From: Bulleidia sp.
Lineage (GTDB): Bacteria > Bacillota_I > Bacilli_A > Erysipelotrichales > Erysipelotrichaceae
Length of the DNA: 64,000 bases
Direction: 5' to 3'
Assembly: GCA_041859965.1 (NCBI GenBank)
Contig: JBFLGD010000007.1
Span: forward strand, 11,885-75,884
Shown: positions 1,894 to 23,761 of the stretch, in pieces
Numbering within the stretch: the stretch's first letter is position 1
How the letters are laid out: each line of letters starts with the position of its first letter
Program-made: the position numbers and the translations under genes
Notes under the pieces: model-generated
What the model was told of the DNA's origin: nothing
Seen by the model: the letters and a program-made list of their open reading frames with translations, nothing else
Databases searched by the model: none

Positions 1894-1909
1894 AAAGAGA
1901 GGGAGACCT

Positions 1910-3626: not shown

Positions 3627-3652
3627 TTGTTAGTGTTTGTTCGTTAGTATAT

Positions 3653-3772: not shown

Positions 3773-3799
3773 AAAAAGTCCTTGAAATAATTCAAGGGC
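3773..3799 (-). terminator. Rho-independent terminator of the inverted pilin pair
   Basis: Minus strand GCCCTTGAA-ttat-TTCAAGGAC-TTTTT, 19 nt past stop at 3818. Confidence 0.75.
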
Positions 3800-3817
3800 C
3801 TAATGGCAATATACTGT

Positions 3818-4261: not shown

Positions 4262-4289
4262 AATAGTTTTCCTTTCCTCTTTGATATGC

Positions 4290-4736: not shown

Positions 4737-4856
4737 ATTATGAGTTCCTCCTGTGCTTATGACTGATTTCATAATAATACAGAATAGAAATCCTTACAAA
4801 TGTTATAACACTTGTATATCAGGCATTCAGCTATACATGTGTACTAGTAAATACGT

Positions 4857-4862
4857 TATAAT
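4857..4862 (+). promoter_or_regulatory. -10 box for downstream pil operon
   Basis: TATAAT 32 nt upstream of ATG 4894; -35 not convincing. Confidence 0.45.
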
Positions 4863-4893
4863 ATAGGCATAACCGAAACAGTAAGGTGTGTAT

Positions 4894-5340
4894 ATGATTC
4901 TAAATAACAGAAAAGGGAAAATATCCAGATTCGAGACAATATTAATTCTGGTGATTATTGCCTGCCTTGCCTTTTTCGTGTTCATTGGACTGAAATGGGA
5001 AAAAGATTCTCTTGATACAGGCAATGATTCATTAAGAGAGAATACAGCAAAGAGCGTAGCTATTGTTAACAGCAATAACGGCATTCAGTGCATGATAAAA
5101 GATTGCCCAAGCTATTCCGGCGGTACATGTACGCACCAGTACGGAACAGATGGATACTTTGGATATTATAATGATGTGTCCAATACGATCGTCGGCGATC
5201 TTCCATCAGGCTACAATGATGGTACTGAAATGGATATTGACGGTAAAAAGTATTATGGAGACCGTGGAACCATGGTCATTAAGGTGACAATTGAGCCTGG
5301 TGAAGAACCTGTGCTTTCATGGGTGAAAGGAAAGGAGTAA
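4894..5340 (+). CDS. Pilin-like membrane-anchored protein with non-canonical signal and Cys cluster
   Basis: NNRKGKISRFE + hydrophobic helix; CMIKDC..TCTH; located directly before pilD. Confidence 0.6.
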   Translation: MILNNRKGKISRFETILILVIIACLAFFVFIGLKWEKDSLDTGNDSLRENTAKSVAIVNSNNGIQCMIKDCPSYSGGTCTHQYGTDGYFGYYNDVSNTIVGDLPSGYNDGTEMDIDGKKYYGDRGTMVIKVTIEPGEEPVLSWVKGKE

Positions 5341-5343
5341 TGC

Positions 5344-6126
5344 ATGCCTTTTTCCTCATTTGATTCATACTTTATTATCTACTTTCTTGTGATCAGCGGG
5401 ATATTCGGAGCTGTTATGGGAAGCGCAGTTACATGTCAGGCAGATCGGCTGAGTGCGCATGAAAGCTGGCTGAAGGGCAGGAGCCACTGTGATGCCTGCG
5501 GACATGAACTTGGTATTCTAGACCTGATACCGGTATTCAGCTATCTCATTCATAAAGGGAAGTGCAGGTACTGCGGTACTAAACTAAGCAAAAAGTACCT
5601 GATTACTGAACTTCTGATGGCAGCTGGATTTGTATTAATTGCAATGCACTATAACTGCTTTACAGTACTGATCATTCGTGACTGGGGACTGATGTGTGCA
5701 CTGCTTGGACTGTCTGTGGTGGACATGGAATCCTATGAAATACCGGACCGTTATATTGTCTTCGGCATTGTATGGAGACTGCTGTTCCTGTTTGCTGAAG
5801 AGGACAGGGTATCAGCTTTGAAGAATGGTGTACTGACTGGCCTTGCTGTAGCAGGTTCACTGCTTGTGATATCCCTGATCATGGATCACATTCTCAAGAA
5901 GGAATCTATGGGTGGAGGAGACATCAAGCTCTTCTTCATGACCGGTCTCTATATGAACCTGTTTATGGGGCTGTTTAACGTGATTATCGCGTGTTTATGC
6001 GGTCTAAGTTTTATGGTAATATTAAAAAAAGAGAAAATACCTTTCGGACCTTCCATCAGTATTGCGACGGTCGTTACATTGCTGATTGGGACACAGTTCG
6101 TGCAGTGGTATTTAGGACTGCTCTAA
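5344..6126 (+). CDS. pilD: Prepilin peptidase/N-methyltransferase (A24)
   Basis: CxxC...GKCRYC zinc motifs, VVDMES and MGGGDIKL catalytic Asp motifs, IPFGPSI. Confidence 0.95.
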   Translation: MPFSSFDSYFIIYFLVISGIFGAVMGSAVTCQADRLSAHESWLKGRSHCDACGHELGILDLIPVFSYLIHKGKCRYCGTKLSKKYLITELLMAAGFVLIAMHYNCFTVLIIRDWGLMCALLGLSVVDMESYEIPDRYIVFGIVWRLLFLFAEEDRVSALKNGVLTGLAVAGSLLVISLIMDHILKKESMGGGDIKLFFMTGLYMNLFMGLFNVIIACLCGLSFMVILKKEKIPFGPSISIATVVTLLIGTQFVQWYLGLL

Positions 6127-6148
6127 GAAACGGAAAGGACTTTCACAT

Positions 6149-7120
6149 ATGGCAAAAGATATACTGGGAATCGAAATTGGAGAGAACCGTATTAAGCTGG
6201 TACAGATGTCACACGGCACTGTAACACGTTTTGTGTCTATTAAAGTACCTGAACAGAGTATCAGCGGTGATGCTGTTGTGGCATGGGATGCACTGGCTGA
6301 TGATGTGAAAAAGGCACTGAAGGAGAATAAGTTCAGTGCTAAGAGAACTGCGGTGGTGATACCTGATTCAGAAACATATGTCAGAAGACTGAAGATGCCT
6401 TCCATGACCGAGAGCCAACTGAACTTCAACCTCCCATACGAATTCAGAGATGTTATTCCTGATGAGAAGGACAAGTATATCTTTGACTATTCCGTCATCA
6501 GAGAATCTGAAGACGGCGGTGAAATGGAAATACTCGGCGCTGCAATTTCTAAGGAAAAACTGGAGAATTATGAACATCTGACTGCTAGATCCGGATTGAG
6601 ACTGGTCAAGGCTGCACCTAGAGTAATGGCACTGCAGTGCCTGATCAGAGAACTGAAAGGTGCTGACAATACGGAAGATACCGCAGTGATCAATTATGAA
6701 TGGAATACGACAAGAGTAGATATTTTCCATGAAGGGATCTATGAAGTAACCAGAAATATTGATACTGGTGTTAAGGATATCGTTAAAGCAGCCGCTGAGA
6801 AGCTGAACTGCGATCCGCATATTGCTGAAAGCTACTGTGCTGATAACAGCAATAATGTTCTGGAATCTCCTGAGTGCATTGCTGTGTATAACACAATATC
6901 AGTAGAGATTATGAGAGCTTTGAACTACTACACATATGAGAATCAGGGAAGCACATTGAATATGCTGTACTACTTCGGTGACGGTGCAGGTATCTCAAGA
7001 ATGATCGATGAACTTAAGAACACAGTATCACTGACAATCATGCCGCTTTCAGATCTTGCACAGGTAAATGCGGAAGCTTTGATCAATGGAGCAGATGCCG
7101 TAGGCATCTGTCTGGAATAG
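6149..7120 (+). CDS. pilM: Pilus alignment protein PilM (actin-like)
   Basis: GIEIGENRIK actin-fold start; position pilD-M-N-O. Confidence 0.85.
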   Translation: MAKDILGIEIGENRIKLVQMSHGTVTRFVSIKVPEQSISGDAVVAWDALADDVKKALKENKFSAKRTAVVIPDSETYVRRLKMPSMTESQLNFNLPYEFRDVIPDEKDKYIFDYSVIRESEDGGEMEILGAAISKEKLENYEHLTARSGLRLVKAAPRVMALQCLIRELKGADNTEDTAVINYEWNTTRVDIFHEGIYEVTRNIDTGVKDIVKAAAEKLNCDPHIAESYCADNSNNVLESPECIAVYNTISVEIMRALNYYTYENQGSTLNMLYYFGDGAGISRMIDELKNTVSLTIMPLSDLAQVNAEALINGADAVGICLE

Positions 7121-7130
7121 GAGGATTGCG

Positions 7131-7775
7131 ATGAATGAAGAGAAGAAAAAATCCGCACTTTCCAGAGATATTACTTTCGGGAAGAAAAAGGACAGGAAGC
7201 CAACCAAGGTTTCAATGAACTTTGTTAAGTATGACCGGAGCGCTGCTAATAAAAAAGCAGTTATTATCTTTGTCGTATTCCTTCTGGCACTGAGCTTGTT
7301 TATTAAGTTTGGGGTTGTTGACCAGATATCCAGAGTGAGTGCGGCCGAGAATGAGTACAATACACTGCAGTCACAGCTGGATGCGTATGACAGTGCAATG
7401 TCTGACTATGACGATGTGAAGAAGGAATACGATGAAAAGGTCGGCTCCTTCACGAGTGATTCCGAGATAGCTTCTGAAGACAGAGATGGTATCTTTACAA
7501 TGATCGATGAAGATATCGCTCCATCTGTTGCAGTAAAGGCTGTTTCAATCAAGAATAATCAGGTGTCAGTAACTACAGACAGTACAAGCCTTTCCACAGT
7601 ATCCTCTATCATCACAATTCTGCAGAGCGACTCACGCAACACATATGTAACAGTAACAACGACTGCAGCTTCCTCTGACAGTTCCGGCGATACAGTCATT
7701 GCAGACTTTGAAATCACCTATGGTCAGAAGGTAACAGCAGATGATACAGAAGAAACAGGAGGTACACAGCAATGA
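7131..7775 (+). CDS. pilN: PilN-like alignment protein
   Basis: SMNF motif, single TM, coiled coil, ferredoxin-like C-terminus; synteny. Confidence 0.7.
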   Translation: MNEEKKKSALSRDITFGKKKDRKPTKVSMNFVKYDRSAANKKAVIIFVVFLLALSLFIKFGVVDQISRVSAAENEYNTLQSQLDAYDSAMSDYDDVKKEYDEKVGSFTSDSEIASEDRDGIFTMIDEDIAPSVAVKAVSIKNNQVSVTTDSTSLSTVSSIITILQSDSRNTYVTVTTTAASSDSSGDTVIADFEITYGQKVTADDTEETGGTQQ

Positions 7776-8368
7776 AGCATAAGTTTACATTCCGTGAATC
7801 AGTACTTCTGGCTGTCGCTGCTGTGATGCTGCTGGCTGTCTTCTATTACATCGTTGTATATAAGAATGTAGAAAATCAGTTAGCACAGTATGATACTACA
7901 GATCTTGTAACTGAACAGACAATTGCTTCTCAGAAGTCTGCTGCATATACGCAGATGAAGAAGGCAATCTCCAGTGAAGAAACAAAGAGCCATGGTACAG
8001 TTGAGCCATATAATAACCTGGCAAATGAAGTGAATGCATTAGGTGCACAGCTGAATGGAAAGTCTACGGATATCCGTATCTCCTGGGCTGATCCGGTACT
8101 TACAGATACAACCGTCAGGAGAGTAGCACAGGTCTCCTGCAATGTAGGAAGCTATGCCGAAGCAGAAAGTCTCGTCAGAAATATTGAAAATCTGCAGTAT
8201 CGTTGCATCATTACAGATCTCACCATTGATTCCTCCGATACGACAGGCAATACAGTCAGCGTATCAATGACCGTGACATTCTTCGAAACAACAGATGGGG
8301 CTGTTTCTACGGAAGGACTGACAGTATCTGAAGATGATACTGCTACAGCCACATCAAACAGCAATTAA
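7772..8368 (+). CDS. pilO: PilO-like alignment protein
   Basis: FTFRE + TM, coiled coil; ATGA overlap with pilN; synteny. Confidence 0.7.
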   Translation: MKHKFTFRESVLLAVAAVMLLAVFYYIVVYKNVENQLAQYDTTDLVTEQTIASQKSAAYTQMKKAISSEETKSHGTVEPYNNLANEVNALGAQLNGKSTDIRISWADPVLTDTTVRRVAQVSCNVGSYAEAESLVRNIENLQYRCIITDLTIDSSDTTGNTVSVSMTVTFFETTDGAVSTEGLTVSEDDTATATSNSN

Positions 8369-8384
8369 AAAAGAAAGAAAAAGA

Positions 8385-11300
8385 ATGAAAAAGATCCTGA
8401 GCAGAATGAAGGACAACTGCAGAAAGGGATTCACGTTAGCAGAACTGATGATTGTTGTATCAATCACCATCATACTGGCGTCAATCGGAACCATTGCAAT
8501 TGTTCAATATCAGAAAAACTTAAAACTTGCGGAAATGAACAATATGGCCCGTGAGATTTTCGTTGCGGCTCAGAATCACTTAACAGACTCCAAGACAACA
8601 GGCAGCTGGCAGGAGTATGCTTCTACACTGAACAGCGGAGAAACTGCTTCAACAGACAGTTCTGTTTCAATAGACAATGCAGACAGCGCCTATCAGGGTG
8701 CAGTCACAGGAACAAAGTATTATTATGCTATCTACAGTTCAGATAAATCGGATGTACTGACTGATTCCAATTATGCACTGTCATATATGCTTCCATTTGG
8801 ATCGCTTGAGGATACAGTCAGAACATCCGGAAGCTATGTGATCATCTTCAATCCTGACAATGAAACAATTCATACTGTGTATTATACAGAGAAGGAGAAC
8901 TTTACCTCTGATGAAGTATCCAAACTGATGTCCATGGATAAAGGCGCATGGACTGTTATGACTGAGAAGGAGATTCCTGTCGGTGTTTATGGCGATGCGG
9001 ATAAGGGAAAATTCACAGCAACTGCATTGAAAACACCTGTGATTACTGTTCATAATGAAGATACCTTGAATATAGATATTCAGGATCTGAACACAGAGAA
9101 TACAACATTGGAGTTTACAGTCAGCGGTTTAACTAGCAAAGCAACAGCTAAGTTTGAAGTGACGCAGAACAATGGAACCGTGACTGTACTGAGCAAAGAC
9201 AATAACAGCACATGGACATACAGCAGTTCCAGCAAAACATTCAATGTTGTTCTGGATGATATCAGAACACAGAATCAGAACTTTATTACAAAGTTCTCTA
9301 AATTCTATCCGGGAGAAAACATAAGTGTAACAGCAAAGTTTAAATCGAGAACCACTTCGTCTGTATCTGTCAGTGCAAGTTCGATTACCAATTCACTGTA
9401 TGCTTCTGTTACGGATGAGAATGATGCTGGCACCAAGGTGAGTGCAGTTATCAATAATCCAAGACATCTGCAGAACCTAGACAGTTCTGTATCTTATGTA
9501 AATGCTTCCTATAAGAACAATGCAAATGGACTCACGGTAGACAATGCAGTGATTGCTTCTGATCTTGACTGGGCTGACTTTATCAGTGAAAACTGTGTAT
9601 ATAGAGCAACTGGCAAGGCAGTTGATGATGTTTCAAGTACGCATAGTTCAAAGTTCAGTTCTATCGTTAATGATTCATTGACTTCATTGACAAGTGATAC
9701 AGAAGGGACCTCACGTACTTTATCGAACTTTAACTTTGGATCCAATGGAGATGGAGCCGGTCTTTTAGGTGAGATTAATTTAACTTCAGCAGGTTTTAAG
9801 ATCAGCGACATCAATCTTGAGAACTGTAGATCCTACGGAACTGACAGTGTTGGAATGCTGGTTGGAATTGTTAACAATAACAATACGAGTGCTTATGTAC
9901 AGGTAAGCAATGTACATGCATATATGAAGGCAACAAGCACGCTGTCGATAGCGGACGCCTACAGTGAAGCAAGTGACTCTGATAACAGACGTATTGTGGA
10001 TGGAGGAAATAAATCCACAATCGGCGGACTGATAGGTACAGTTGATGGCAATCTAAGCATGAGGAACTCCTCGGCTTCTGTGAGAGTCGGTGATGGCAAG
10101 CAGATATATGCTGGTGGAATGATAGGAAGAATCACTTCAGGCACTGTATCAATCAATGAGTCGTATGTAGGCGGCTACCTTGGTAAGAATGGTACAAAGA
10201 CATCCTATGATATGGATAAGCCCAATGTTATGGCTTCAAACGGAAATACTGCAGCCGGTGGATTTATTGCCCAGGCAGATAATGCGGCTGTCACAATTAA
10301 GGAATGCTATACAACAGCATCTGTTTATGGACATACAGCCGGTGGATTTATTGGTGTCGATAATACGGGTGTCAGATATGCAGATGTTTATACGACTTCA
10401 TTTGTTCAGGGCAATACAGTTGGAAGATTTGTTGGTACAGGTACAGGCACACTTATTAGCTACAATACATATGCCGGTGTTTTAGAGACATCGCAACTTT
10501 ATGATATGAGCGGCAAGACAGCAGCTGAATCAGCACAGCCTTCATATGTAACTGAATTCCTTTCTTCAGAACTTAAGAACCAGTCAGGAAGCAGTACACA
10601 GACAGCATCTGTATATTCGTCTTCAGCATTGAAGAGTGCGGTATATCCATATCCTTCCAGTGCATCCAAGGGTACGCACTATGGAGACTGGGTAGAGGCA
10701 GCTGATCCTATTATCCCTACAGATGGCATAGGATTCCTTTATTACGAGAAGGTGGATGGAAGCTATTACTATAATGGAGTGCAGTGTTCTAAGAATGGAA
10801 AAGTAACGGCTGTAAGCAATCCAACATTGCTTAATAATGGCGGAACATACAGCCACTATACTGTTGAGGATGATGGGTACATTCTTGTCATTCCAAACGG
10901 ATATCTGGCAAGCAACTGGAATACAAGATTTTCTTTCAATTCCTATCATGGATACGATGATACACAGTGGGGAGGGATCTCCCTGGATTTACTGTATAGA
11001 AGTGGACTTGTCTCTTATACGTCAAGCACAATAACTTCAGCACTGGGAATTGGAGATGGGTATACTGCTGTTACGATTAATAAGAACAGCAGAACACTGG
11101 ATTATATGAATAATGACAGTCAGGGCGGACTGTCCATATATTTCAGAGGAAATGATGATATTCAGCGAAATTCTATAAAGGGAACGTTCAATTATAACTA
11201 TTGTTTTGGCAACAGTATTGAGGGAAGTACTAGAGATGCTGTTAACACCCCATATGAAATTAGAAGTGCTTCTCAGCTGAAACTACTCTTTAACGATAAC

Positions 11301-13574
11301 AGTGCTGATACATTCCTGAATTCGAATCATAAATATACTGTGACACAGACAATGGATATTACCGCAGAATCCAATATGTCGACTCTTGATGAACTCTTTG
11401 GAACATATCAGGGCATTATGATGGATGATGGCAATTACTCAAAATTATCCGATTTTGATTCTACTTTTGTAGGGTATGTAGGTCCGACCGGAATCATTCA
11501 GAATATCGTATTTGACGGCACTTACATAGATTCAAAATATGATCTTTACAGATACAATGGAGGATATGGAACATTCGTCTCTTCCTTGGAAGGAAAACTT
11601 CAGAATGTGACAGTCAATAACACTTCTGTGAAGGCAGGCAGCTGGAATTACAGCAGCTACAACTTCGGTGTTATAGGCTCAATGAGCGGAGGAAGCACTT
11701 CTGCAGTCAGCAACGTTAAAATTAGCAATGTTGATTTCACCGGTACATCTTTCTATGCAAACAGCCTTGGAGTTATCGCATCTGCAGGGGCTGGAAGTAT
11801 AACTGATACTTCTATTACAGGCGTCAGTATTAAATGTCCTACTTTGGCAGCAAAGAATACCGGTGTGATTGCGGCTGCTACCGGTGGATTTGTATCATGT
11901 AAGAATCTGACAATATCAGATGTTAATTGTACAGACAGCAAAGTCACATCAGATAATACCTTTGGTGCTATAGGAAGTGTGTCTGGCGGAAGTCTTGATA
12001 CAGTTTCAATCAGCAAGGTGAATATTAATGATTCTACAATCACTTCAGATTATGTAGGGGCAGTGGCGAATCTTGAATATGGCAGCGGAACGGTCTCAGG
12101 GCTGTCTGTCAGCAATATTAATGTCACAGACAGTACGATCAATTCAACGGTCACCGGTATAGGAATCGGCGGTATTGAAAATCAGACAATTTATAATACG
12201 TCTGTTTCAGATATAAAGATTTCAAAGGTGACAAATAAATCGTCATCCTCTGCTGGAATTATTGGAGAGATCGATAATGACGGGTATCTGAACAATACAG
12301 TAATTAGAAATATCTCAATACTTGATTCAAGTATAACTGCACAGTACACAGGTGCTATTGGAAATGTTGCTTCATCAGGGGCAGGAGTATACAACACATT
12401 AATTTCAGGTGTAACAATCGGTACCGATCCAGCGGATGATGAAGATGAAGTCAATGCGAAACTTGATGCGACTTATGCAGGCATAGCAGTTGGTTTCAAC
12501 AAAGGCGTTATTTCCGGTATCACGGTGGGAACACATGAAGCCGGTGTTACAGTCAACAAAGTGAATATTGATGCGGATAACTTTGGAATTATTGCATGCA
12601 ATTCCAATAATAATGGTTACATAGTTGACTATATTGATTCTGATGGCAACGGTGTTTCTGATGGGCAGTCAACATTTGAGCATATATCTCTGACAAATCT
12701 TACATTGAAGAATACTTCTGGCTATAATGTGCTGAATGCAGGAATCATCGCGAATAACTCCGGTATAATCACAGACTTTGCAATGAAGGATATTGTGATG
12801 ACGGGTTGGAATCTCCCGACGGATATTACGTCAATCAATGCTGGCGCAATAGGCAATAATTCTGGAACTATTGATAGAACAAGCGAATTTGAAACAAATC
12901 CTGTACGAAATCTGACAATGTCTGGTTTCACTTCCGGGACTGACAAGACTGCATATACAGATTATGCATTTGCAGGATTGAATTCTGGCTACAGTACATT
13001 GCTCAGATACATTACGATCAATGATTACTATACCGAAGGCTATGGAGCTGTCTATAACAATGCTGATGGTTCAACGATCAGCAATATCACAATCGATATG
13101 ACAGATCATACAGATGACATTCCATATGTGATCGATCCCGCTGATCCAAATGCTACAGAGAACAGAGTGATTCCGCATATTGGCAGAGATGGATTTGCAT
13201 ATAAGAATAGTTCCAGAGTATCAACGTGTGTGATCACGAATGCTGTTAAAGATACAGCAAATCCTGAGAACAGCAGCATCCTTGGCAATGTCTTTATTGA
13301 AGCAGCGAACAATACTGGAACCATCGACGACTGTGAAGTCACAGACTCTAATGGAACTGTATTGTGGCCTGTGACATCCAGAATGAGTGTTGCACCAGCT
13401 GCCGTCACACAGCAGCCTTCAACGCCGTCTGCATCCGCACAGAGCAATGCTTCGGCATCTGCATCATCATCCGCTGACAGCACAGCATCTGCTTCCGCTT
13501 CACCTTCACCTTCTCCGTCGGCTTCTTCAGCAGCTGGAAGCAGTGCATCACCTTCTGCTTCTGCAGGACAGTGA
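8385..13574 (+). CDS. Giant pilin/adhesin (~1,730 aa): class III signal, Ig-like segment, two GLUG-like beta-helix modules, S/A/P tail
   Basis: RKG|FTLAELMIVV at 8421-8450; repeated GGxIG/GVIG/GAIG units; start moved from 8334 to ATG 8385 (8406 also possible). Confidence 0.85.
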   Translation: MKKILSRMKDNCRKGFTLAELMIVVSITIILASIGTIAIVQYQKNLKLAEMNNMAREIFVAAQNHLTDSKTTGSWQEYASTLNSGETASTDSSVSIDNADSAYQGAVTGTKYYYAIYSSDKSDVLTDSNYALSYMLPFGSLEDTVRTSGSYVIIFNPDNETIHTVYYTEKENFTSDEVSKLMSMDKGAWTVMTEKEIPVGVYGDADKGKFTATALKTPVITVHNEDTLNIDIQDLNTENTTLEFTVSGLTSKATAKFEVTQNNGTVTVLSKDNNSTWTYSSSSKTFNVVLDDIRTQNQNFITKFSKFYPGENISVTAKFKSRTTSSVSVSASSITNSLYASVTDENDAGTKVSAVINNPRHLQNLDSSVSYVNASYKNNANGLTVDNAVIASDLDWADFISENCVYRATGKAVDDVSSTHSSKFSSIVNDSLTSLTSDTEGTSRTLSNFNFGSNGDGAGLLGEINLTSAGFKISDINLENCRSYGTDSVGMLVGIVNNNNTSAYVQVSNVHAYMKATSTLSIADAYSEASDSDNRRIVDGGNKSTIGGLIGTVDGNLSMRNSSASVRVGDGKQIYAGGMIGRITSGTVSINESYVGGYLGKNGTKTSYDMDKPNVMASNGNTAAGGFIAQADNAAVTIKECYTTASVYGHTAGGFIGVDNTGVRYADVYTTSFVQGNTVGRFVGTGTGTLISYNTYAGVLETSQLYDMSGKTAAESAQPSYVTEFLSSELKNQSGSSTQTASVYSSSALKSAVYPYPSSASKGTHYGDWVEAADPIIPTDGIGFLYYEKVDGSYYYNGVQCSKNGKVTAVSNPTLLNNGGTYSHYTVEDDGYILVIPNGYLASNWNTRFSFNSYHGYDDTQWGGISLDLLYRSGLVSYTSSTITSALGIGDGYTAVTINKNSRTLDYMNNDSQGGLSIYFRGNDDIQRNSIKGTFNYNYCFGNSIEGSTRDAVNTPYEIRSASQLKLLFNDNSADTFLNSNHKYTVTQTMDITAESNMSTLDELFGTYQGIMMDDGNYSKLSDFDSTFVGYVGPTGIIQNIVFDGTYIDSKYDLYRYNGGYGTFVSSLEGKLQNVTVNNTSVKAGSWNYSSYNFGVIGSMSGGSTSAVSNVKISNVDFTGTSFYANSLGVIASAGAGSITDTSITGVSIKCPTLAAKNTGVIAAATGGFVSCKNLTISDVNCTDSKVTSDNTFGAIGSVSGGSLDTVSISKVNINDSTITSDYVGAVANLEYGSGTVSGLSVSNINVTDSTINSTVTGIGIGGIENQTIYNTSVSDIKISKVTNKSSSSAGIIGEIDNDGYLNNTVIRNISILDSSITAQYTGAIGNVASSGAGVYNTLISGVTIGTDPADDEDEVNAKLDATYAGIAVGFNKGVISGITVGTHEAGVTVNKVNIDADNFGIIACNSNNNGYIVDYIDSDGNGVSDGQSTFEHISLTNLTLKNTSGYNVLNAGIIANNSGIITDFAMKDIVMTGWNLPTDITSINAGAIGNNSGTIDRTSEFETNPVRNLTMSGFTSGTDKTAYTDYAFAGLNSGYSTLLRYITINDYYTEGYGAVYNNADGSTISNITIDMTDHTDDIPYVIDPADPNATENRVIPHIGRDGFAYKNSSRVSTCVITNAVKDTANPENSSILGNVFIEAANNTGTIDDCEVTDSNGTVLWPVTSRMSVAPAAVTQQPSTPSASAQSNASASASSSADSTASASASPSPSPSASSAAGSSASPSASAGQ
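13384..13571 (+). repeat. Low-complexity Ser/Ala/Pro coding tail
   Basis: SASAQSNASASASSSADSTASASASPSPSPSASSAAG. Confidence 0.8.
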
Positions 13575-16197: not shown

Positions 16198-16208
16198 AAA
16201 TCATTCAT

Positions 16209-16252
16209 AAGCGGGGAAACGTCTGTTGAATACAGGGGATTCCCGCTTTTTT
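16209..16252 (+). terminator. Terminator after gdhA
   Basis: AAGCGGGGAA...TTCCCGCTTTTTT. Confidence 0.75.
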
Positions 16253-16272
16253 CGTGCATCAGAAGGAACTGT

Positions 16273-16329
16273 CTTAAGACTTTCTTAATGATTCTGGTGC
16301 TTTTTTCTTAATACAGATATTTCTACAAT
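16273..16329 (+). promoter_or_regulatory. OmpR/CiaR-type direct repeats plus TACAAT -10 ahead of dlt-like operon
   Basis: CTTAAG-N5-CTTAAT (16273-16289), third CTTAAT at 16307, TACAAT 16324-16329. Confidence 0.4.
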
Positions 16330-16524
16330 TAAACCATCAAAGGGGATGCTGAACATGAATAAACAGTCTAAATTGTATTAAGGTGTGAAATACCCGATTG
16401 CATTGTTTCAATGTTACATAAGTGTCATGACTGCTGTATGAGTACTTGTGATAGTATCGGAAGTATTAACACAGATAGAAAGGTTTCGCGGGAAGTGCTT
16501 TTCCCGAAGAATGAATGAAAACGT

Positions 16525-17451
16525 ATGAGATCAAATCAATACAGCTGGAAGAAAACAGTACTGTTTCTAATGTGCTTGGTAATGCTGCTGTTTGCAGCCA
16601 GCGCGCCATTTTATAAAGATGTTTCAGAGGGCTATCAGTATCAGAATGTGGGTCATAAGAAGCAAATGCTTGATTCTGTTAAGAAGGACAGTCTCGATGT
16701 TCTCCTGATGGGAGATTCACAGGTATGGGCAGGACTGTCTCCATTGCAGCTGTATGGAGAATATGGCATTGCTTCCTATAACTGTGCAACTTCAGGACAG
16801 TGTACCTATGACACAATGATTCTTCTGAAAGAAGCGCTGAAGAGACAGAATCCGAAAATAGTTGTTATAGGAACAAGCTCCTTCTATTCGGGACCGCAGC
16901 CACTGAAATTCCTGCTGACACATATACTGCCTGTCTTTCATTACCATGGTTTCAGCAACCGGAATACAAAGGCATACGGAGATGAAAAATATCTTGGCGC
17001 ACATCTGGTCAATACAGTGGATCCATATACGGGAAGCGGTAAATATATGGAGAAAAATAAAAAGTGTGATGAGATGTCACCTATTCAGAAAACATATCTG
17101 GATGATATGAAGGATATATGCAAGGCAAGAGGTATCAAGCTGGTCTTTGTTACAATGCCTACCGGCGTTAACTGGACAGATGGCAAACATGATGCGGTAC
17201 AGAAATATGCGGATGAATATAACATTCCATATTACGACTATAACGAAACAAAGGCTTTTACACGTCTCGGCTTCAACTGGTCTACTGATACAAGAGATGC
17301 TGGAAAACATGTCAACATTTCGGGATCCATTAAAATAACAAGAGACTTTGGGAGAATACTGAAAGCACATTATACGCTGCAGGATCATCGCGGTGAGAGT
17401 GAATATCAGAGCTGGGAAAATGAATATAAGAACTGCGGTTTCTATTCCTGA
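16525..17451 (+). CDS. Membrane-anchored SGNH-fold protein (DltD/AlgJ analogue)
   Basis: N-terminal TM, LLMGDSQ nucleophile block, DAGKH D..H block. Confidence 0.8.
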   Translation: MRSNQYSWKKTVLFLMCLVMLLFAASAPFYKDVSEGYQYQNVGHKKQMLDSVKKDSLDVLLMGDSQVWAGLSPLQLYGEYGIASYNCATSGQCTYDTMILLKEALKRQNPKIVVIGTSSFYSGPQPLKFLLTHILPVFHYHGFSNRNTKAYGDEKYLGAHLVNTVDPYTGSGKYMEKNKKCDEMSPIQKTYLDDMKDICKARGIKLVFVTMPTGVNWTDGKHDAVQKYADEYNIPYYDYNETKAFTRLGFNWSTDTRDAGKHVNISGSIKITRDFGRILKAHYTLQDHRGESEYQSWENEYKNCGFYS

Positions 17452-17477
17452 TGACCGCATGAAGGGAATATAGATAT

Positions 17478-19025
17478 ATGGATGGAATTCTTTCTTATAA
17501 CAAATTCACGTATTTTCTGGTGTTTCTGCCACTCGTGATCATACTGTATCAATTGATGCCTAAGAAATTCAGGTGGGCTGTTTTACTTCTGGCAAGCTAT
17601 GCATTCTTCTTCTCCTTCTCAAGGAAGCTGGTACTGTACAACGTTGCTGCATCTATTCTGACATATGCTTTTGGCAGAATCCTTGGCTCCATGAAGAAGG
17701 CACCGGAGGGAATGGACAGAAAGGCATTTAAGAAAAAGAAACACAGAATACTGGTACTTGCCGTCCTGATAGATCTAGGTGCATTGGTCCTTCTGAAATA
17801 TTCAAACTTCTTCGGGAGAACATTTGCTTCGCTGACCGGCAGTACATTTTCTCCAGTTGAATTCCTGGTGCCGCTGGGTATCAGCTACTATACGCTGCAG
17901 TGCATTTCCTATCTCTGCGATGTAGCAGGGAAGAAAATAGAACCTACGCATCACTTCTTTCAGCTGGCGCTGTATCTTAGCTTTTTTCCGACCATAATGG
18001 AAGGTCCTATCTGCCGTTTTGATCAGATTGGAGAGGATCTTTATGCCGGCAATTCAGTTACTTCCGAACATCTGGCATTAGGATATGAAAGAATCCTTTT
18101 TGGTCTGTTTAAGAAAATCATTATAGCGGACAGACTTTCACCGGTAGTGGATAACCTGTTTGCTTATCATACTGGTGAAGGTGCGCTCTGTCTGCTGGCC
18201 GCAATACTGTTTACGCTGCAGATGTATATGGATTTCTCGGGTATGATCGATATTGGAATAGGGTCCGCCCGTATCTTTGGAATTACTGTGCCGGAGAACT
18301 TCCGTCAGCCATTTTTTGCTAAGAATGCAGGCGATTTCTGGAGAAGATGGCATATTACGCTGGGGACATTCTTCCGTGACTATATCTTCTATCCGGTATC
18401 TTTATCAAAGCCAATCCAGCACTTAACAAAGTGGACTGGAAAGCATGTTGGCAAGAAGGCGTCACGCTATATCGGACCATTAATTGCACTGCTCTGTGTA
18501 TGGCTTGCGAATGGACTGTGGCATGGACCGCACTGGAATTATATTGTCTATGGACTGTATTACTTTTCACTGACTGCCATAGAAATGTTTACAGAGAAAC
18601 CATTTGAAGCATGGTGCCATAAGCATAATCTGAACATAGAAGGTGCAGGCATACGTACCTTCAGATTTATTAAACTGGTGCTGATTGTCATCACCGGTGA
18701 GATGTTCTTCCGTGCAGTTTCACTTCATGCAGGATGGACAATGCTGGTAAGTATCTTCACGAATTTTGATGTGAAGCAGATCTTTACAGTCCTTCCGCAG
18801 CTGGACATGAGCAGGGAAGATTATCTGATTGTAGCAGTGGCATTTGCGGCAGTGATTGCTGTCAGTGTACTGAAGGAAAAGAAGTTCCCAATCAGAGAAA
18901 AGTTCAACAGTATGCCGACTATGGCAAGGTGGGCTATACTGTATGTCATTATATTTGCGATTGTTCTGTTTGGCGCATATGGACCTGGGTATGACGCTGT
19001 TGCAGCAATGTATGCCGGGTTCTAA
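17478..19025 (+). CDS. MBOAT family acyltransferase (DltB/AlgI-like)
   Basis: LGISYYT, FFPTIMEGP, YMDFSG, ENFRQPF, FWRRWHITL, GLWHG catalytic His. Confidence 0.92.
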   Translation: MDGILSYNKFTYFLVFLPLVIILYQLMPKKFRWAVLLLASYAFFFSFSRKLVLYNVAASILTYAFGRILGSMKKAPEGMDRKAFKKKKHRILVLAVLIDLGALVLLKYSNFFGRTFASLTGSTFSPVEFLVPLGISYYTLQCISYLCDVAGKKIEPTHHFFQLALYLSFFPTIMEGPICRFDQIGEDLYAGNSVTSEHLALGYERILFGLFKKIIIADRLSPVVDNLFAYHTGEGALCLLAAILFTLQMYMDFSGMIDIGIGSARIFGITVPENFRQPFFAKNAGDFWRRWHITLGTFFRDYIFYPVSLSKPIQHLTKWTGKHVGKKASRYIGPLIALLCVWLANGLWHGPHWNYIVYGLYYFSLTAIEMFTEKPFEAWCHKHNLNIEGAGIRTFRFIKLVLIVITGEMFFRAVSLHAGWTMLVSIFTNFDVKQIFTVLPQLDMSREDYLIVAVAFAAVIAVSVLKEKKFPIREKFNSMPTMARWAILYVIIFAIVLFGAYGPGYDAVAAMYAGF

Positions 19026-19040
19026 AAAGGAAGTATAGAC

Positions 19041-20573
19041 ATGAAAACTAAGAATGTACTGGAGTGGCTTGAAGAAAGCGCAAAGAGAGTTCCTGATAAG
19101 GTGTCATTTGCAGATCCTGATGGAGAGATTTCTTTTGCACAGCTTGAAAAGGATGCACAGAGAATAGGTTCTTTTCTGTGTGGAAAGATAAACAGAAATG
19201 AACCGGTGTCCTTCTACCTTGAGAAAAGTACACTGGCAATGTCTGGAATGCTTGGTGCTGTTTATGCAGGAGGATTCTATTCGCTGCTGGATACGCGGCT
19301 GCCTGAGAGCAGACTGCAGAGTATTCTAGGCGTTCTGCGGCCATGCATCATTCTGACCGACAGCAAAAATAGAGAACAGGCTGAACATCTGTTTGATAAG
19401 GAAAGCTATGAGATCTATTCTCTTGAGGACATACTGGAGATTAATAAGTATGATCCGCAGGAACTGAAGATTCGAAGAGAGGAAGCACTGGATTGCGATC
19501 CTCTCTATGTCAATTTCACTTCGGGTTCTACAGGTATTCCAAAGGGTGTAGCAGTCAGTCATAGAAGTGTTATTGATTTCATTGAGATCTTTGACAGAAC
19601 ATTCGGCATAAAGGAAACAGATATACTTGGCAATCAGGCACCGTTTGATTTTGATGTTTCAGTAAAGGATATCTTTTCCGGCTTATATACAGGTGCTTCT
19701 GTACAGATTATTCCAAGAGAGTATTTTTCCAATCCAACTCTGCTGATGGACTATCTATGCGACAGAAATGCAACGGTACTGATATGGGCGGTCAGCGCTA
19801 TGTGCTTTGTGTCAATTATGAATGGTTTTGGATACAAAGTGCCTGAAAAAGTAAGAATGGTCCTGTTCAGTGGAGAAGTAATGCCTGTGAAGCAGCTGAA
19901 TAAATGGAGAAAGGCACTGCCGAATGCTATATATGTGAATCTTTATGGACCGACCGAGATTACCTGCAACTGCACATACTATGTACTGGATAATAGAGAG
20001 TATGCTGCAGATGAGATTATTCCAATCGGCAGACCTTTTGACAATGAGAAGGTGTTTCTTCTGAATGAAGAGAATGAACAGATACTTGAACCTGGAAAGC
20101 AGGGAGAAATATGTGTTTCCGGAACCTGCCTTGCCTTAGGGTATTACCGTGATAAAGAGAAAACAGATACGGTATTTACACAGAACCCATTGAATACATG
20201 TCTGCCTGAAAGGATATACCATACAGGTGATCTGGGACAGTACATGGATAATGGAAATCTGGTATACAGCGGCCGCAGGGATTTTCAGGTAAAGTATCTT
20301 GGTCATCGCATAGAACTCAATGATATTGAAGCACAGGTGCAAAGTGTTAATGGTATTGAAAGAGCCTGCTGTCTGTTCAATCAGGAGAAGAAAAGACTTC
20401 TTCTATTCTATACAGGCGGCCGTGAAAGCAGAGAACTGGCAGAAGAACTCAGAAAGATACTGCCGCCGTATATGCTGCCGAATAAACTGACAAAGCTGGA
20501 TGAAATGCCAATGACGAAGAATGGAAAGATAGACCGGAATATACTGAAACAGCAGGAAGGCATTCAGAAATGA
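19041..20573 (+). CDS. Stand-alone amino-acid adenylation enzyme (DltA-like, non-DltA pocket)
   Basis: FTSGSTGIPKG (A3), FDFDVSV (A4), YGPTE (A5), YHTGDLG (A7), GRRDFQVK (A8), NGKIDR (A10). Confidence 0.9.
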   Translation: MKTKNVLEWLEESAKRVPDKVSFADPDGEISFAQLEKDAQRIGSFLCGKINRNEPVSFYLEKSTLAMSGMLGAVYAGGFYSLLDTRLPESRLQSILGVLRPCIILTDSKNREQAEHLFDKESYEIYSLEDILEINKYDPQELKIRREEALDCDPLYVNFTSGSTGIPKGVAVSHRSVIDFIEIFDRTFGIKETDILGNQAPFDFDVSVKDIFSGLYTGASVQIIPREYFSNPTLLMDYLCDRNATVLIWAVSAMCFVSIMNGFGYKVPEKVRMVLFSGEVMPVKQLNKWRKALPNAIYVNLYGPTEITCNCTYYVLDNREYAADEIIPIGRPFDNEKVFLLNEENEQILEPGKQGEICVSGTCLALGYYRDKEKTDTVFTQNPLNTCLPERIYHTGDLGQYMDNGNLVYSGRRDFQVKYLGHRIELNDIEAQVQSVNGIERACCLFNQEKKRLLLFYTGGRESRELAEELRKILPPYMLPNKLTKLDEMPMTKNGKIDRNILKQQEGIQK

Positions 20574-21754
20574 TAGAGAATGCGGAACTGCAGCAGATTG
20601 CTGAGAAGTATGGAACACCTTGCTATGTATTTGATACTGAAGCACTGCAGAAATGGGTCGGGGAGATCAGAAAACAGGGTGAGGAAAAATATCATCTCTG
20701 TTTCTCTGTCAAAGCAAATCCATTTCTGATACCAACTATGGAAAAACTAGTGGATTCTCTGGAGGTGTGCTCACCAGGAGAATTCTCAATCTGCAGATAT
20801 CTTCATGTAGATCCTGATATGATTCTTTATTCTGGCGTCAATAAGACAGAAGAGGACATCCATGAAGCAATGCAGTATGGAACCAGTCATTTTACGGCAG
20901 AGTCACTGAAACATTTCAGAGAGATCAATGCGGAGGCAGTAAAAGAAAATAAATCGGTATCTGTTCTGCTCCGTATCAATACTGGATCTCAGTTTGGTAT
21001 GTCAATGAATGATCTTCTGGAGATTGTTGATCATAGAAATGAATATCCACATATTCATTTGAGCGGTATTCATTACTTTGCAGGTACAGAAAGAAGAAAG
21101 GCTGTAAAGCAGCTGAAGGAACTTGAAAAGCTGAAGGATCTGTATCATGAACTGGAACATGAGCATGCATGGAGACCGGAGAAACTTGAATATGGGCCGG
21201 GACTCAGTGTGCCTATGTTCACAAAGGATGATTTCTCTGACCCATTAATGCCATTAAGGAATATTCATAAAGAACTTTGTGACTTCGCAGAGAATGCAGA
21301 TGTCACCATAGAGATGGGAAGATTCTTCGCGTCATTCTGCGGTATGTACCTGACCGAAGTTATGGACACAAAAGAAAATGGAGGTGTAAATTACTGTATT
21401 ATTGACGGCGGTATTCATCATGTGAACTACTATGGTTCTATGATGGGTATGAATGCGCCGATTATAGAACATCTTTCAGCAGCAGATAATCATGAGAAGA
21501 AGGAATGGTGTATATGCGGATCTTTATGTTCCTTTAATGATGTACTGGTAAGAAGTTTCCCGGCGGAGGGACTGAAGGAAAAGGATATCCTTGTATTTAA
21601 GAATATAGGTGCCTATTCTGTAACCGAGGGAATGTATCTGTTCCTCAGCAGGAAGATGCCGAGAATACTGTTAAGAGATAAAAATGGCAGAATACAGGAA
21701 GCCAGAGCATATAAGGAATCCTGGAAACTGAATACAATGAAAGAAGGAGAATAA
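20570..21754 (+). CDS. Fold-type III PLP enzyme, diaminopimelate/ornithine decarboxylase family (BtrK-like candidate)
   Basis: YGTPCYVFD, SVKAN PLP lysine, IHYFAG, EMGR, CGSLC, GAYS. Confidence 0.85.
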   Translation: MIENAELQQIAEKYGTPCYVFDTEALQKWVGEIRKQGEEKYHLCFSVKANPFLIPTMEKLVDSLEVCSPGEFSICRYLHVDPDMILYSGVNKTEEDIHEAMQYGTSHFTAESLKHFREINAEAVKENKSVSVLLRINTGSQFGMSMNDLLEIVDHRNEYPHIHLSGIHYFAGTERRKAVKQLKELEKLKDLYHELEHEHAWRPEKLEYGPGLSVPMFTKDDFSDPLMPLRNIHKELCDFAENADVTIEMGRFFASFCGMYLTEVMDTKENGGVNYCIIDGGIHHVNYYGSMMGMNAPIIEHLSAADNHEKKEWCICGSLCSFNDVLVRSFPAEGLKEKDILVFKNIGAYSVTEGMYLFLSRKMPRILLRDKNGRIQEARAYKESWKLNTMKEGE

Positions 21755-21758
21755 AGAT

Positions 21759-21989
21759 ATGGATGAATTGATCGCATTATTAGAGGATATAAAGGAGGAT
21801 GTGGACTTCAGAAACTGCAGAACATTGATTGATGATCATATACTGGACTCATTTGATATTCTGCAGATTGTTTCTACACTGAATGATAACTATGACATTT
21901 CCATTCCTGCTTCAGACATTGTTCCATCTAACTTCAATTCAGCAGAAGCACTGCTGGCAATGGTAAAGAAACTGCAGGAAGAAGGCTGA
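21759..21989 (+). CDS. Acyl/aminoacyl carrier protein (DltC-like)
   Basis: 76 aa, acidic, LDSFD phosphopantetheine site, NFNS motif. Confidence 0.9.
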   Translation: MDELIALLEDIKEDVDFRNCRTLIDDHILDSFDILQIVSTLNDNYDISIPASDIVPSNFNSAEALLAMVKKLQEEG

Positions 21990-21990
21990 T

Positions 21991-22305
21991 CTACTTCTGA
22001 TGCACGGATACCATGGCAATGGCAATGCCTGCGTCATGGGAAATGCTGACTTCAATCTCCGGATGGCCCTTGATAAAGGGCTGTCCGTTTTCTTTGTTCA
22101 GAACAGTATAGGAAAGGTATTCAGGATCCTGCGTGGCCTTGAAAACAGCTTCCTTTACAGCAAAGCGGGAGGCAAGGTATGTTTTCTTTTCGCGGATCGT
22201 ATGCAGAGCTTCATAGACATGCTCTTCTTCATCCGTGAGGAAGAAGCATGCATTCTTACGATCTGGCTGCATACGGTCGATTTCAACAATATCAATTCCA
22301 ATCAT
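21991..22305 (-). CDS. acpS: Holo-ACP synthase (4'-phosphopantetheinyl transferase)
   Basis: GIDIVEIDR, LASRFAVKEAVFKA, SISHD. Confidence 0.9.
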   Translation of the reverse strand: MIGIDIVEIDRMQPDRKNACFFLTDEEEHVYEALHTIREKKTYLASRFAVKEAVFKATQDPEYLSYTVLNKENGQPFIKGHPEIEVSISHDAGIAIAMVSVHQK

Positions 22306-22393: not shown

Positions 22394-23761
22394 ATGTCAT
22401 CTCAGGGTAATTTTACAGAAGGAAAGATCTTTGGTCCGCTGATGAAGTTTACAATACCGGTAGTTCTTGCATTGGTACTGCAGTCTCTTTACGGGGCTGT
22501 GGATCTATGGGTTGTCGGCCAGTTTGCGGCAAGTTCTGATGTATCGGCAGTCTCTACCGGGTCACAGATCATGCAGACAATAACGAATGTCATTGCCGGT
22601 CTTGCCATGGGCACAACAATACTTCTCGGCCATCAGTTAGGAGAGAAAAAGAACAGAGAAGCAGGGCGTACAGTAGGCACTTCCATTCTTTTCTTTGCTG
22701 GCGTAGCAATCATATTTACAGCATTGATTCTTTTGAATGTGACAAATATTGCTAATATTATGAATGCCCCGCAGGAAGCTTTTACTGCGACAGAAAACTA
22801 TATACGAATCTGTGCAGCCGGACAGATTTTTATCATTGCATATAATCTGCTTGGTTCACTGTTCAGAGGTCTAGGCAATTCCAGACTCCCGCTGATATCT
22901 GTTGCCATTGCGGCAGTGATCAATGTATTCGGCGATCTGCTGTTCGTATGTGTATTTCATATGGGAGCTGCAGGTGCTGCATATGCGACAGTTATTTCAC
23001 AGGCAATCAGTGTTGTGATATCTCTTTGCATTATTATGCATATGGATCTTCCTTTTGAATTCAAGAAGCAGGATCTGACTTTCAATAGACAGCTTGCTAA
23101 GAAGATCTTCATGTTCGGCTTTCCGCTTGCATTGGCTGATTTCCTTGTTGGTATTTCTTTCTTGATCATTGTAGCAATTGTGAATTCATTGGGATTGATT
23201 GCGAGTGCGGGTGTTGGTGTAGCGGAAAAGGTATGCGCATTTATTATGCTGGTACCGAGTGCTTTCAGTCAGTCTATTGCTGCATATTCAGCACAGAACT
23301 ATGGTGCCCGCAAGCTTGACCGTGCCCATAAGGGACTGCACTATGCAATGGCGGTATCTTTCAGTATTGGACTTGTTATGGCATGGGCATCGTTTTTCCA
23401 TGGCGATGTACTGTGCGGCATATTTTCAGCAGACAGCGAAGTTGTGGCAGCCGGATGGCAGTATCTTCGTGCCTATTCCTTTGACTGCATGCTGACACCG
23501 TTCTTCTTCTGTATGTCAGGCTATTTTAACGGCTGCGGAGATACTAAATTTGTTATGGCACAGAATATGATCGGTGCACTTGCTGTACGTGTGCCGGTTT
23601 CATACCTGATGTCCAAGATGCAGCCTGTCTCACTGTTCCATGTAGGACTGGCAACACCATGTTCTTCACTGGTGCAGATCATTCTATGTGCTTCCTATAT
23701 GTTTCTGGTTGCCAGAAAGAAGGAAGCAGCGATTATGCATGAGAATACTGCGGTACAATAA
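22394..23761 (+). CDS. MATE family efflux transporter
   Basis: 12-TM pattern, two halves, LFRGLGNS/GCGDTK motifs. Confidence 0.92.
   Translation: MSSQGNFTEGKIFGPLMKFTIPVVLALVLQSLYGAVDLWVVGQFAASSDVSAVSTGSQIMQTITNVIAGLAMGTTILLGHQLGEKKNREAGRTVGTSILFFAGVAIIFTALILLNVTNIANIMNAPQEAFTATENYIRICAAGQIFIIAYNLLGSLFRGLGNSRLPLISVAIAAVINVFGDLLFVCVFHMGAAGAAYATVISQAISVVISLCIIMHMDLPFEFKKQDLTFNRQLAKKIFMFGFPLALADFLVGISFLIIVAIVNSLGLIASAGVGVAEKVCAFIMLVPSAFSQSIAAYSAQNYGARKLDRAHKGLHYAMAVSFSIGLVMAWASFFHGDVLCGIFSADSEVVAAGWQYLRAYSFDCMLTPFFFCMSGYFNGCGDTKFVMAQNMIGALAVRVPVSYLMSKMQPVSLFHVGLATPCSSLVQIILCASYMFLVARKKEAAIMHENTAVQ

Follow-up and report, generated by a model that had tools for sequence, protein, structure and literature searches.

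A 64,000-nucleotide stretch of DNA from Bulleidia sp., here called the window, contains a five-gene operon for a membrane-anchored SGNH-fold protein, an O-acyltransferase of the membrane-bound type (MBOAT), a stand-alone adenylation enzyme of the non-ribosomal peptide synthetase (NRPS) type, a fold-III pyridoxal 5'-phosphate (PLP) decarboxylase and a carrier protein, followed by a convergent gene for a phosphopantetheinyl transferase of the AcpS type (Table 1). This operon probably serves the carrier-dependent aminoacylation of a cell-envelope glycopolymer, where aspartate, or less likely glutamate, would be decarboxylated on the carrier and the resulting aminoacyl group handed outwards by the MBOAT and the SGNH-fold protein. 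On sequence grounds, the system is a hybrid, in which a Dlt-like donor side and BtrK-like editing on the carrier are joined to a PatA-like MBOAT with a fused shuttle and an SGNH partner. What the analysis shows, entirely by computation, is the identity of the genes, their folds and motifs and the conservation of their linkage, as given below.

An earlier note on this stretch had described a dlt-like operon with an embedded PLP decarboxylase as a candidate surface aminoacylation system. Those elements of the interpretation that were open to in silico checks all came out as predicted, and the interpretation is supported. The six open reading frames (ORFs) were found precisely where the note had placed them (16525-22305), with tight spacings of 26, 15, -4 and 4 nt between consecutive genes of the operon on the forward strand. 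We could not find a published description of this combination of three known modules. The full-text literature, including PMC12148441 and the Lipocone preprint and with most subscription journals outside coverage, contained none of the cluster or of such a surface decoration, in agreement with the note, which knew of no characterised example.

Adenylation enzyme, decarboxylase and carrier protein

The decarboxylase combines the Pfam domains Orn_Arg_deC_N and Orn_DAP_Arg_deC (PF02784 and PF00278) and matches Ala_racemase_N as well (E 1e-10). It scored 159.2 bits on the LysA equivalog TIGR01048 (cut-off 297.9) and 24 bits on the alr model (cut-off 168). The nearest entries in the PDB by sequence were BtrK 2j66 and 7ru7 (E 6e-30), ahead of any LysA, although identity to BtrK is low. 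Alignment revealed the first diagnostic motif to be DGGIHHVNYYG in the window, DGGMHHHAAS in BtrK and DAGMNDLIRPSIY in Aquifex LysA; the second motif reads GSLCSFND, GPLCTPED and GPICETGD, respectively. The window enzyme thus has DGGxHH in common with BtrK, its nearest solved relative, and is devoid of the motifs DAGMNDLIRPxxY and CE(S/T)GD of solved LysA. In LysA, the distal end of diaminopimelate (DAP) is presumably bound by Arg and Tyr in the first motif and by Glu in the second. As judged from these motifs and scores, the enzyme is other than LysA, as had been proposed. PLP-binding Lys48, His168, Glu248, Cys320 and Asp324 are invariant across the family, for which reason an active decarboxylase is to be expected. 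Public annotations of the relatives read diaminopimelate decarboxylase or alanine racemase.

Enzymes of this type are known to work on carriers. BtrK converts carrier-tethered Glu to γ-aminobutyrate (GABA) and accepts the tethered substrate only, CtaF converts Asp-S-PCP, where PCP is the peptidyl carrier protein, to β-Ala-S-PCP and refuses free Asp (PMC7183216), and with VinO, and in the FlvN pathway, 3-methyl-Asp or Asp is decarboxylated on the carrier only (PMC11284099). The precedents given in the earlier note, BtrK and VinN/VinO/VinL, are correct, with CtaD/CtaE/CtaF as a third (PMC7183216, PMC11284099). By analogy, the window decarboxylase would act on a thioester-tethered substrate.

The gene arrangement of the window is also that of BtrI/BtrJ/BtrK, CtaD/CtaE/CtaF and VinN/VinL/VinO or FlvN, where a fold-III decarboxylase gene lies beside those of a ligase and a stand-alone carrier. 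Differences are that BtrJ and CtaD are ATP-grasp ligases, whereas the window has an adenylation enzyme like VinN, and that protecting-group, condensation and polyketide synthase (PKS) genes are missing from the operon, the product being apparently destined for the cell envelope. A further relative is the uncharacterised exosortase-A-associated pair TIGR03098/TIGR03099, in which, as we take it, an AMP-forming ligase and a fold-III PLP decarboxylase are encoded side by side at proteobacterial exopolysaccharide loci. The window proteins match both models (180.4 and 156.5 bits), but far under the cut-offs of 592.35 and 478.45, and taxa and partner genes differ.

The adenylation enzyme contains an AMP-binding domain (E 7e-60) and exceeded the cut-off of the amino-acid adenylation domain model TIGR01733 (320.5 versus 317.4 bits). 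On the DltA equivalogs TIGR01734 and NF003417, it reached 284.7 and 294.2 bits against cut-offs of 559.85 and 476. Ten pocket positions were located with the anchor motifs A4, A5 and A10 together with a HMMER alignment to LgrA, yielding the code DVKILSLCNK for the window enzyme and DVK[VIT][ML]SLCNK for the family, represented by 76 homologues whose overall identity is no more than 47-70%. Fixed in all of them are Asp235, Lys239, Ser301, Cys330 and Asn331, and positions 278, 299 and 322 are bulky (I/V, L/M and L, respectively). The near-invariant code implies that the adenylation family uses one substrate. We take Lys at position 239 to be a feature of Glu-activating domains (code DAKDLGVVDK) and the remainder of the code to resemble the small-substrate Ser code DVWHLSLIDK. 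A pocket that is fairly shallow and contains an invariant Lys239 suggests an acidic amino acid of small size as the substrate. The dicarboxylic amino acid proposed earlier agrees with the scores under the DltA cut-offs and with the lysine, which is as expected for an acidic substrate.

The one carboxylate that a PLP enzyme can take off is that at the carbon bearing the amine. For the trio of adenylation enzyme, decarboxylase and carrier this implies that the thioester would be formed via the side-chain carboxyl group, as by VinN, BtrJ and CtaD. Formation of β-alanyl from Asp appears more likely than that of GABA-yl from Glu, because the pocket looks small and because 4-aminobutyryl, as a thioester or an ester, can close to a five-membered lactam if its amine is unprotected. 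In the pathways to butirosin and vicenistatin, γ-glutamyl and alanyl groups are placed on the amine (PMC7183216, PMC11284099), which, in our reading of this literature, amounts to amine protection; in the operon, no amine-protecting enzyme like the ones of these pathways was found.

The carrier scored 20.7 bits on PP-binding, against a cut-off of 20.8, and its serine lies in the motif LDSFD. It stayed below the cut-offs of the DltC models (28.9 versus 68 and 17.1 versus 52.35 bits) and likewise of the AsbD model. It is the best-conserved component of the cluster, with a median identity of 62% to the relatives described below and of 80% in the 12 colinear loci, above every cluster enzyme, and at E<=1e-10 its family comprises 244 representatives of clusters built at 50% identity. 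The convergent AcpS was identified by PF01648 and by TIGR00556 (51.8 bits, cut-off 45.35) and probably primes the carrier. The gene is present as the earlier note had it, starting 1 nt past the carrier gene; its linkage, however, is limited to Erysipelotrichaceae, where Galactobacillus and a metagenome-assembled genome have it adjacent in convergent orientation and Solobacterium has it nearby. At the loci of other clades it is not found, and AcpS was therefore downgraded from the core components.

Membrane proteins and gene linkage in relatives

The MBOAT carries domain PF03062 (E 2e-13) and matches the DltB model TIGR04091 alone, with 164.5 bits against a cut-off of 375; its sole sequence matches in the PDB were to DltB (6bug and 8jem, E 4e-21). 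In a Foldseek search with an AlphaFold2 (AF2) model, which had a mean confidence (pLDDT) of 83 and low confidence for the last four residues, DltB was on top (TM-score 0.66-0.70), followed by HHAT and PORCN. A DltB-like core of approximately residues 7-407 is followed by an extension of ~105 aa relative to DltB, which includes hydrophobic segments at 446-468 and 478-508 and ends in ...AAMYAGF. His292 (WRRWH), His349 (WHG) and Tyr512 are invariant in the MBOAT alignment (26 sequences), and a C-terminal [FM]xYxx[FY] motif was found in 56 of the 58 MBOATs linked to a trio.

The hexapeptide FxYxxF is an acyl shuttle, as established experimentally for DltX and the PatA C-terminus, whose Tyr receives the acyl group at the MBOAT and delivers it to the SGNH partner's Ser (PMC12148441). 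The earlier assignment of the MBOAT as DltB holds for the core; the protein is, however, not of the DltB type, having a fused C-terminal Tyr shuttle as in the PatA/AlgI type. With the shuttle tail fused to the MBOAT, DltX is not needed.

The SGNH gene product gave no match to any Pfam or NCBIfam model, including DltD. It has an N-terminal transmembrane (TM) helix at residues ~8-33, and Ser65 (GDS), Asp258 and His262, which are invariant in 19 homologues, form a putative triad. Foldseek with the AF2 model (pLDDT 87) returned only SGNH/GDSL folds from the PDB, with TesA, PAF-AH and 4ppy at the top and DltD (6pfx) at rank 38. Fold and motif bear out the former description as a DltD analogue, whereas membership in the DltD family does not stand. 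The protein is predicted to be the extracytoplasmic transferase and a functional analogue of DltD or PatB.

In common with PatA/PatB and AlgI/AlgJ/AlgX, the window has a C-terminal FxYxxF-type hexapeptide on two extra TM helices and a separate SGNH-fold partner (PMC12148441). Three features of the PatA/PatB type are there, namely an MBOAT domain with conserved His, the C-terminal hexapeptide and an adjacent SGNH partner with a Ser/His/Asp triad. The known systems differ by using acetyl-CoA (CoA, coenzyme A) and neither an adenylation enzyme nor a carrier, and MBOAT/SGNH pathways besides Dlt in general rely on an acyl-CoA donor without a carrier protein (PMC12148441). Since the MBOAT gene of the window shares its operon with the genes of the trio, the transferred group should be aminoacyl and not acetyl. 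The protein appears to be a fused-shuttle MBOAT that is fed by a carrier protein.

A scan of one genome per species gave 386 genomes that encode a decarboxylase relative, and locus counts refer to the best 80 of the 386. Among these 80 loci were Erysipelotrichaceae (Galactobacillus, the closest with 63% identity, Solobacterium and Bulleidia), Lachnospiraceae (Roseburia, Butyrivibrio, Eubacterium and Wujia), Oscillospiraceae (Gemmiger formicilis ATCC 27749), Christensenellales and Coriobacteriia (Olsenella and Tractidigestivibacter). The cluster is conserved and widespread in gut Firmicutes, as the earlier note had suspected, and occurs in rumen and oral Firmicutes and in Coriobacteriia as well. 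Carriers in culture include, besides G. formicilis ATCC 27749, Butyrivibrio sp. NC2002 and INlla14, Tractidigestivibacter scatoligenes SK9K4, Olsenella spp. and Solobacterium moorei.

The adenylation gene lies immediately 5' of the decarboxylase gene in 79 of the 80 loci, the remaining locus ending at a contig edge, and a carrier gene is present in 71. An MBOAT gene was found within 8 kb of the trio in 53 loci and an adjacent pair of MBOAT and SGNH-like genes in 49; 12 loci are colinear with the window. This gene arrangement is not due to chance. Neighbours of the cluster in the relatives are wall-polymer genes (TagD/TagF-like, GT2, GtrA/GtrII, AT3, LytR-CpsA-Psr and DUF3048). Median identity to the window decreases from the carrier (62%) over the adenylation enzyme (57%) and the decarboxylase (51%) to the MBOAT (34%) and the SGNH-like protein (31%), which fits a constant donor chemistry with the carrier as a hub and variable acceptors.

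Where the pair is absent locally, an MBOAT 51% identical to that of the window is encoded elsewhere in the genome, after a co-oriented gene without a Pfam match. In a Bulleidia relative, this distant MBOAT gene is on the same contig, 46 kb off, beside LytR-CpsA-Psr and rhamnose-synthesis (rml) genes, and a distant MBOAT is likewise present in Solobacterium.

Several loci deviate from the one-pair layout. One trio is accompanied by two MBOATs and three SGNH-like genes at locus L007 (127-6240) and in the Olsenella group (L053, L055, L079, L081), and by four MBOAT/partner pairs at the Roseburia locus L088. Several pairs per trio suggest several acceptors or acceptor positions, or mixed acetyl and aminoacyl transfer; carrier use by every pair is not required. 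At the Wujia locus L039, which also has a TagF-like gene and a GT2 gene, the gene for a hexapeptide-repeat transferase (5294-6415) lies directly 5' of the carrier gene, and at the Roseburia locus L075 the gene for an AT3 acyltransferase (5350-6360) lies directly 5' of the adenylation gene. Different transferases may draw on the same aminoacyl-carrier module.

DUF3048 genes stand beside the clusters of three Roseburia loci and of Galactobacillus (L001 16109-17179, L088 18884-20020, L075 12048-13178 and L090 2147-3238). A pair of FrhB_FdhB_C and 4Fe-4S ferredoxin genes is recurrent in Roseburia loci (at L075, the FrhB gene alone was scanned). In Solobacterium, genes for a TetR regulator and for an MCRA protein of the oleate hydratase type follow 3' of the decarboxylase gene (L086 10711-13191 and L087 5152-7632); at L086 they stand between the decarboxylase gene and a candidate carrier gene of 71 aa with AcpS. 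Database entries include 586-aa proteins in which TetR and decarboxylase domains are joined (P0049, P0051, P0054 and P0056) and which could be read-through or gene-call fusions.

Proposed pathway and competing explanations

In the proposed pathway, AcpS would turn the 76-aa carrier into its holo form. The adenylation enzyme would then activate L-Asp via the β-carboxyl group (less likely Glu via the γ-carboxyl group) and thioesterify the carrier, with Asp235 gripping the amine and Lys239 the free α-carboxylate in the pocket. The BtrK/CtaF/VinO-like decarboxylase would strip the α-carboxylate on the carrier to give β-alanyl-S-carrier (or 4-aminobutyryl-S-carrier). At the cytoplasmic face, the MBOAT would use its His292/His349 site to take the aminoacyl group off the phosphopantetheine arm and move it to the Tyr of its own MYAGF tail at the outer face, from where it would reach Ser65 of the SGNH-fold protein and finally be set as an ester on an extracytoplasmic polymer, such as a teichoic-acid-like or rhamnose-type wall polysaccharide. 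The net outcome would be an amine-bearing wall ester with a charge effect similar to that of D-alanylation. Substrate, regiochemistry, on-carrier decarboxylation, MBOAT donor and acceptor are what we infer in this scheme. The chances are about even that a wall glycopolymer of many Gram-positive anaerobes from gut, rumen and mouth bears β-alanyl (or GABA-yl) esters that are made by decarboxylation of Asp (or Glu) on a dedicated carrier and exported by a carrier-fed Tyr-shuttle MBOAT.

Several points weigh against the aminoacylation of an envelope glycopolymer as outlined. All fused-shuttle MBOATs characterised so far take acetyl-CoA without a carrier protein (PMC12148441). No MBOAT lies within 8 kb in 27 of the 80 loci; for many of these the contig is short, but the flanks are complete, and a nearby MBOAT still lacking, in Solobacterium, Bulleidia, Wujia and some Roseburia loci. 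The trio is adjoined by a hexapeptide acyltransferase (L039) or an AT3 acyltransferase (L075) in some loci without an MBOAT. In about a third of loci it is unlinked from an MBOAT or beside other acyltransferases, and several loci have 2-4 MBOAT/partner pairs per trio. Concerning the substrate, Asp235 is kept and the code is like that of an α-amino-acid (Ser-like) domain, which makes side-chain carboxyl activation a deduction, and the choice of Asp over Glu is based on the pocket shape and a chemical argument. In the window itself, glycopolymer genes do not adjoin the operon. The stretch was found in DNA runs from bioreactor-sludge, fermentation and manure metagenomes, with no RNA run among the sequencing runs containing it.

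The donor of the known fused-shuttle MBOATs, the trios lacking a nearby MBOAT, the other acyltransferases beside the trio and the supernumerary MBOAT pairs all speak for an explanation by two separate modules, which we regard as unlikely, though it is the most serious competitor. Here, the MBOAT and the SGNH protein would O-acetylate a wall polymer from acetyl-CoA in the manner of PatA/PatB, and the trio would serve another, cytoplasmic acceptor, for example an amino sugar nucleotide (N-acylation) or a lipid, via a transferase encoded elsewhere. It is opposed by the window and the 12 colinear loci, in which all five genes form one compact operon without any other transferase, and by the MBOAT core, which is nearest to DltB, the one MBOAT fed by a carrier. 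The presence of an MBOAT near 53 of the 80 trios is well above chance for a family with few copies, the expectation being an estimate. Moreover, CoA and the holo-carrier share the phosphopantetheine arm, so that a switch of the donor would be a mechanistically small step.

A comparison with the Dlt system (DltA, DltB, DltC, DltD and DltX) bears on a second alternative. In both systems, an adenylation enzyme loads a small carrier that is primed by AcpS, an MBOAT carries the group across the membrane by means of a Tyr ester, and an SGNH-fold protein sets it on a wall polymer; the MBOAT core of the window is nearest to DltB in sequence and in fold. A variant of Dlt is conceivable, where D-Ala or another simple amino acid would be loaded and the PLP enzyme would act on a free substrate, in the role of LysA, of a racemase or of a decarboxylase supplying the amino acid. 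The scores of the adenylation enzyme on the DltA models (285-294 bits), the match of the MBOAT to the DltB model only, the Ala_racemase_N match and the annotations as diaminopimelate decarboxylase or alanine racemase are in its favour. In contrast to Dlt, however, the window operon has a PLP decarboxylase gene between the adenylation and carrier genes, a position fixed at nearly all loci, and its four Dlt counterparts are far under the cut-offs of the Dlt equivalogs, as is the PLP enzyme under those of LysA and alr. No DltX-like micro-ORF was found in a search upstream of the operon, the shuttle motif being instead on the MBOAT C-terminus with its two extra hydrophobic segments, and the SGNH protein is outside the DltD family. 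With the LysA motifs missing, BtrK-like motifs in place and the full decarboxylase catalytic set including Cys320 conserved, and with an invariant pocket Lys that would be unexpected for Ala, the Dlt variant is distinctly improbable.

A third possibility makes use of the same pocket differently. If meso-DAP were loaded via the carboxyl group of its L-centre, with Asp235 contacting the α-amine and Lys239 the distal carboxylate, removal of the carboxyl group of the distal D-centre on the carrier would give L-lysyl-carrier and, in turn, a lysyl wall ester with two positive charges. The position of the PLP enzyme within the DAP decarboxylase branch (159 bits on the lysA model) and the retention of Asp235, as in α-amino-acid domains, together with a pocket Lys would suit this substrate. 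The LysA motifs are missing, though, and positions 278, 299 and 322 are bulky as in small-substrate codes, whereas Lys and Orn adenylation codes are more open. As free lysine is available, such a detour would have no obvious advantage, and we give this route very little weight.

A thiotemplated, NRPS-independent small-molecule pathway like that of closthioamide or the butirosin side chain, with the MBOAT as an exporter or lipid acyltransferase, is most improbable: the characterised on-carrier fold-III decarboxylases BtrK, CtaF and VinO all belong to secondary metabolism, but the operon is without condensation, ATP-grasp, PKS, transglutaminase and tailoring genes, the neighbours in relatives are glycosyltransferase, TagF-like, LytR-CpsA-Psr, AT3 and GtrA genes, and the MBOAT has a polymer-acylation shuttle motif and an SGNH partner.

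D-alanylation of teichoic acids is a major factor in surface charge, cationic-peptide resistance, autolysis and host signalling and is a drug target. If true, the carrier-dependent transfer of β-alanyl or GABA-yl groups would be a second envelope aminoacylation chemistry of Gram-positive bacteria beside it, and the MBOAT would be the first with a fused shuttle shown to draw its acyl group from a carrier protein, which would extend the Tyr-shuttle mechanism of this family. From general chemistry, a β- or γ-aminoacyl ester should be less base-labile than an α-aminoacyl ester. Surface models of little-studied commensals (Roseburia, Butyrivibrio, Gemmiger, Solobacterium and Olsenella) would have to be altered, and a new wall-bound small amine, β-alanine or GABA, would be present at the host interface. 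A widespread mis-annotation of the cluster genes, which besides diaminopimelate decarboxylase and alanine racemase includes DltB or AlgI in public entries, would be corrected.

Operon layout and other genes of the window

Table 1. Coordinates of the operon genes and adjoining features in the window.
Feature	Position	Strand	Basis
Intergenic leader, 327 nt, 3' of gdh gene	16198..16524	+	sequence read
Membrane-anchored SGNH-fold protein, 308 aa	16525..17451	+	AF2 fold and motif
MBOAT acyltransferase, 515 aa	17478..19025	+	PF03062
Stand-alone NRPS-type adenylation enzyme, 510 aa	19041..20573	+	TIGR01733 above cut-off
Fold-III PLP decarboxylase, BtrK type, 394 aa	20570..21754	+	Pfam, NCBIfam, BtrK match
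Carrier protein, 76 aa, phosphopantetheine site in LDSFDI	21759..21989	+	PP-binding
AcpS-type phosphopantetheinyl transferase, 104 aa, convergent	21991..22305	-	PF01648, TIGR00556
Terminator-like hairpin, 12 pairs and T-run, inside acpS coding region	22060..22087	+	pattern match only

The ATGA overlap of the adenylation and decarboxylase genes, which had been noted before, is legible in the sequence, as are Shine-Dalgarno-like purine runs, and by this overlap the decarboxylase gene reads as translationally coupled to the adenylation gene. The leader opens with a hairpin and T-run resembling a terminator of the upstream gdh gene, and the operon promoter is presumably inside the leader, where no significant promoter match was obtained. 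An Rfam scan of 14-24 kb of the window gave no family. The hairpin within acpS could mark the end of the operon transcript; across the region, promoter- and terminator-like pattern matches were no more numerous than in shuffled sequence.

A possible flippase partner encoded by the downstream MatE gene (22394-23761) was dropped, for the relatives do not keep MatE beside the cluster. Other envelope genes on the forward strand of the window encode a GT2 protein (43143-44459), a PGA_cap capsule-synthesis protein (45323-46528), a Polysacc_synt_2 protein (56126-57994) and a LytR-CpsA-Psr ligase (58802-60814). They are candidates for making the acceptor polymer, but lie 20-35 kb off the operon.

A P-type cation ATPase is encoded in two ORFs on the forward strand, 34014-34991 for the N-terminus and E1-E2 domain and 35048-36658 for the hydrolase and C-terminal domains; the cause of this split may be a frameshift, decay to a pseudogene or faulty assembly. 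At the start of the window (68-13574, forward strand), there is a cluster resembling those of type IV pili or type II secretion systems, with two T2SSE ATPases, T2SSF, a prepilin peptidase, PilM and a T2SSM-like gene. Its last gene (8334-13574) encodes a giant protein of 1746 aa, whose sole Pfam match is an N-terminal prepilin methylation motif (GFTLAELMIVVSI). The long, repetitive body of this protein is rich in S/T/N/G and the tail in S/A/P, by which features it may be a giant pilin-like adhesin.

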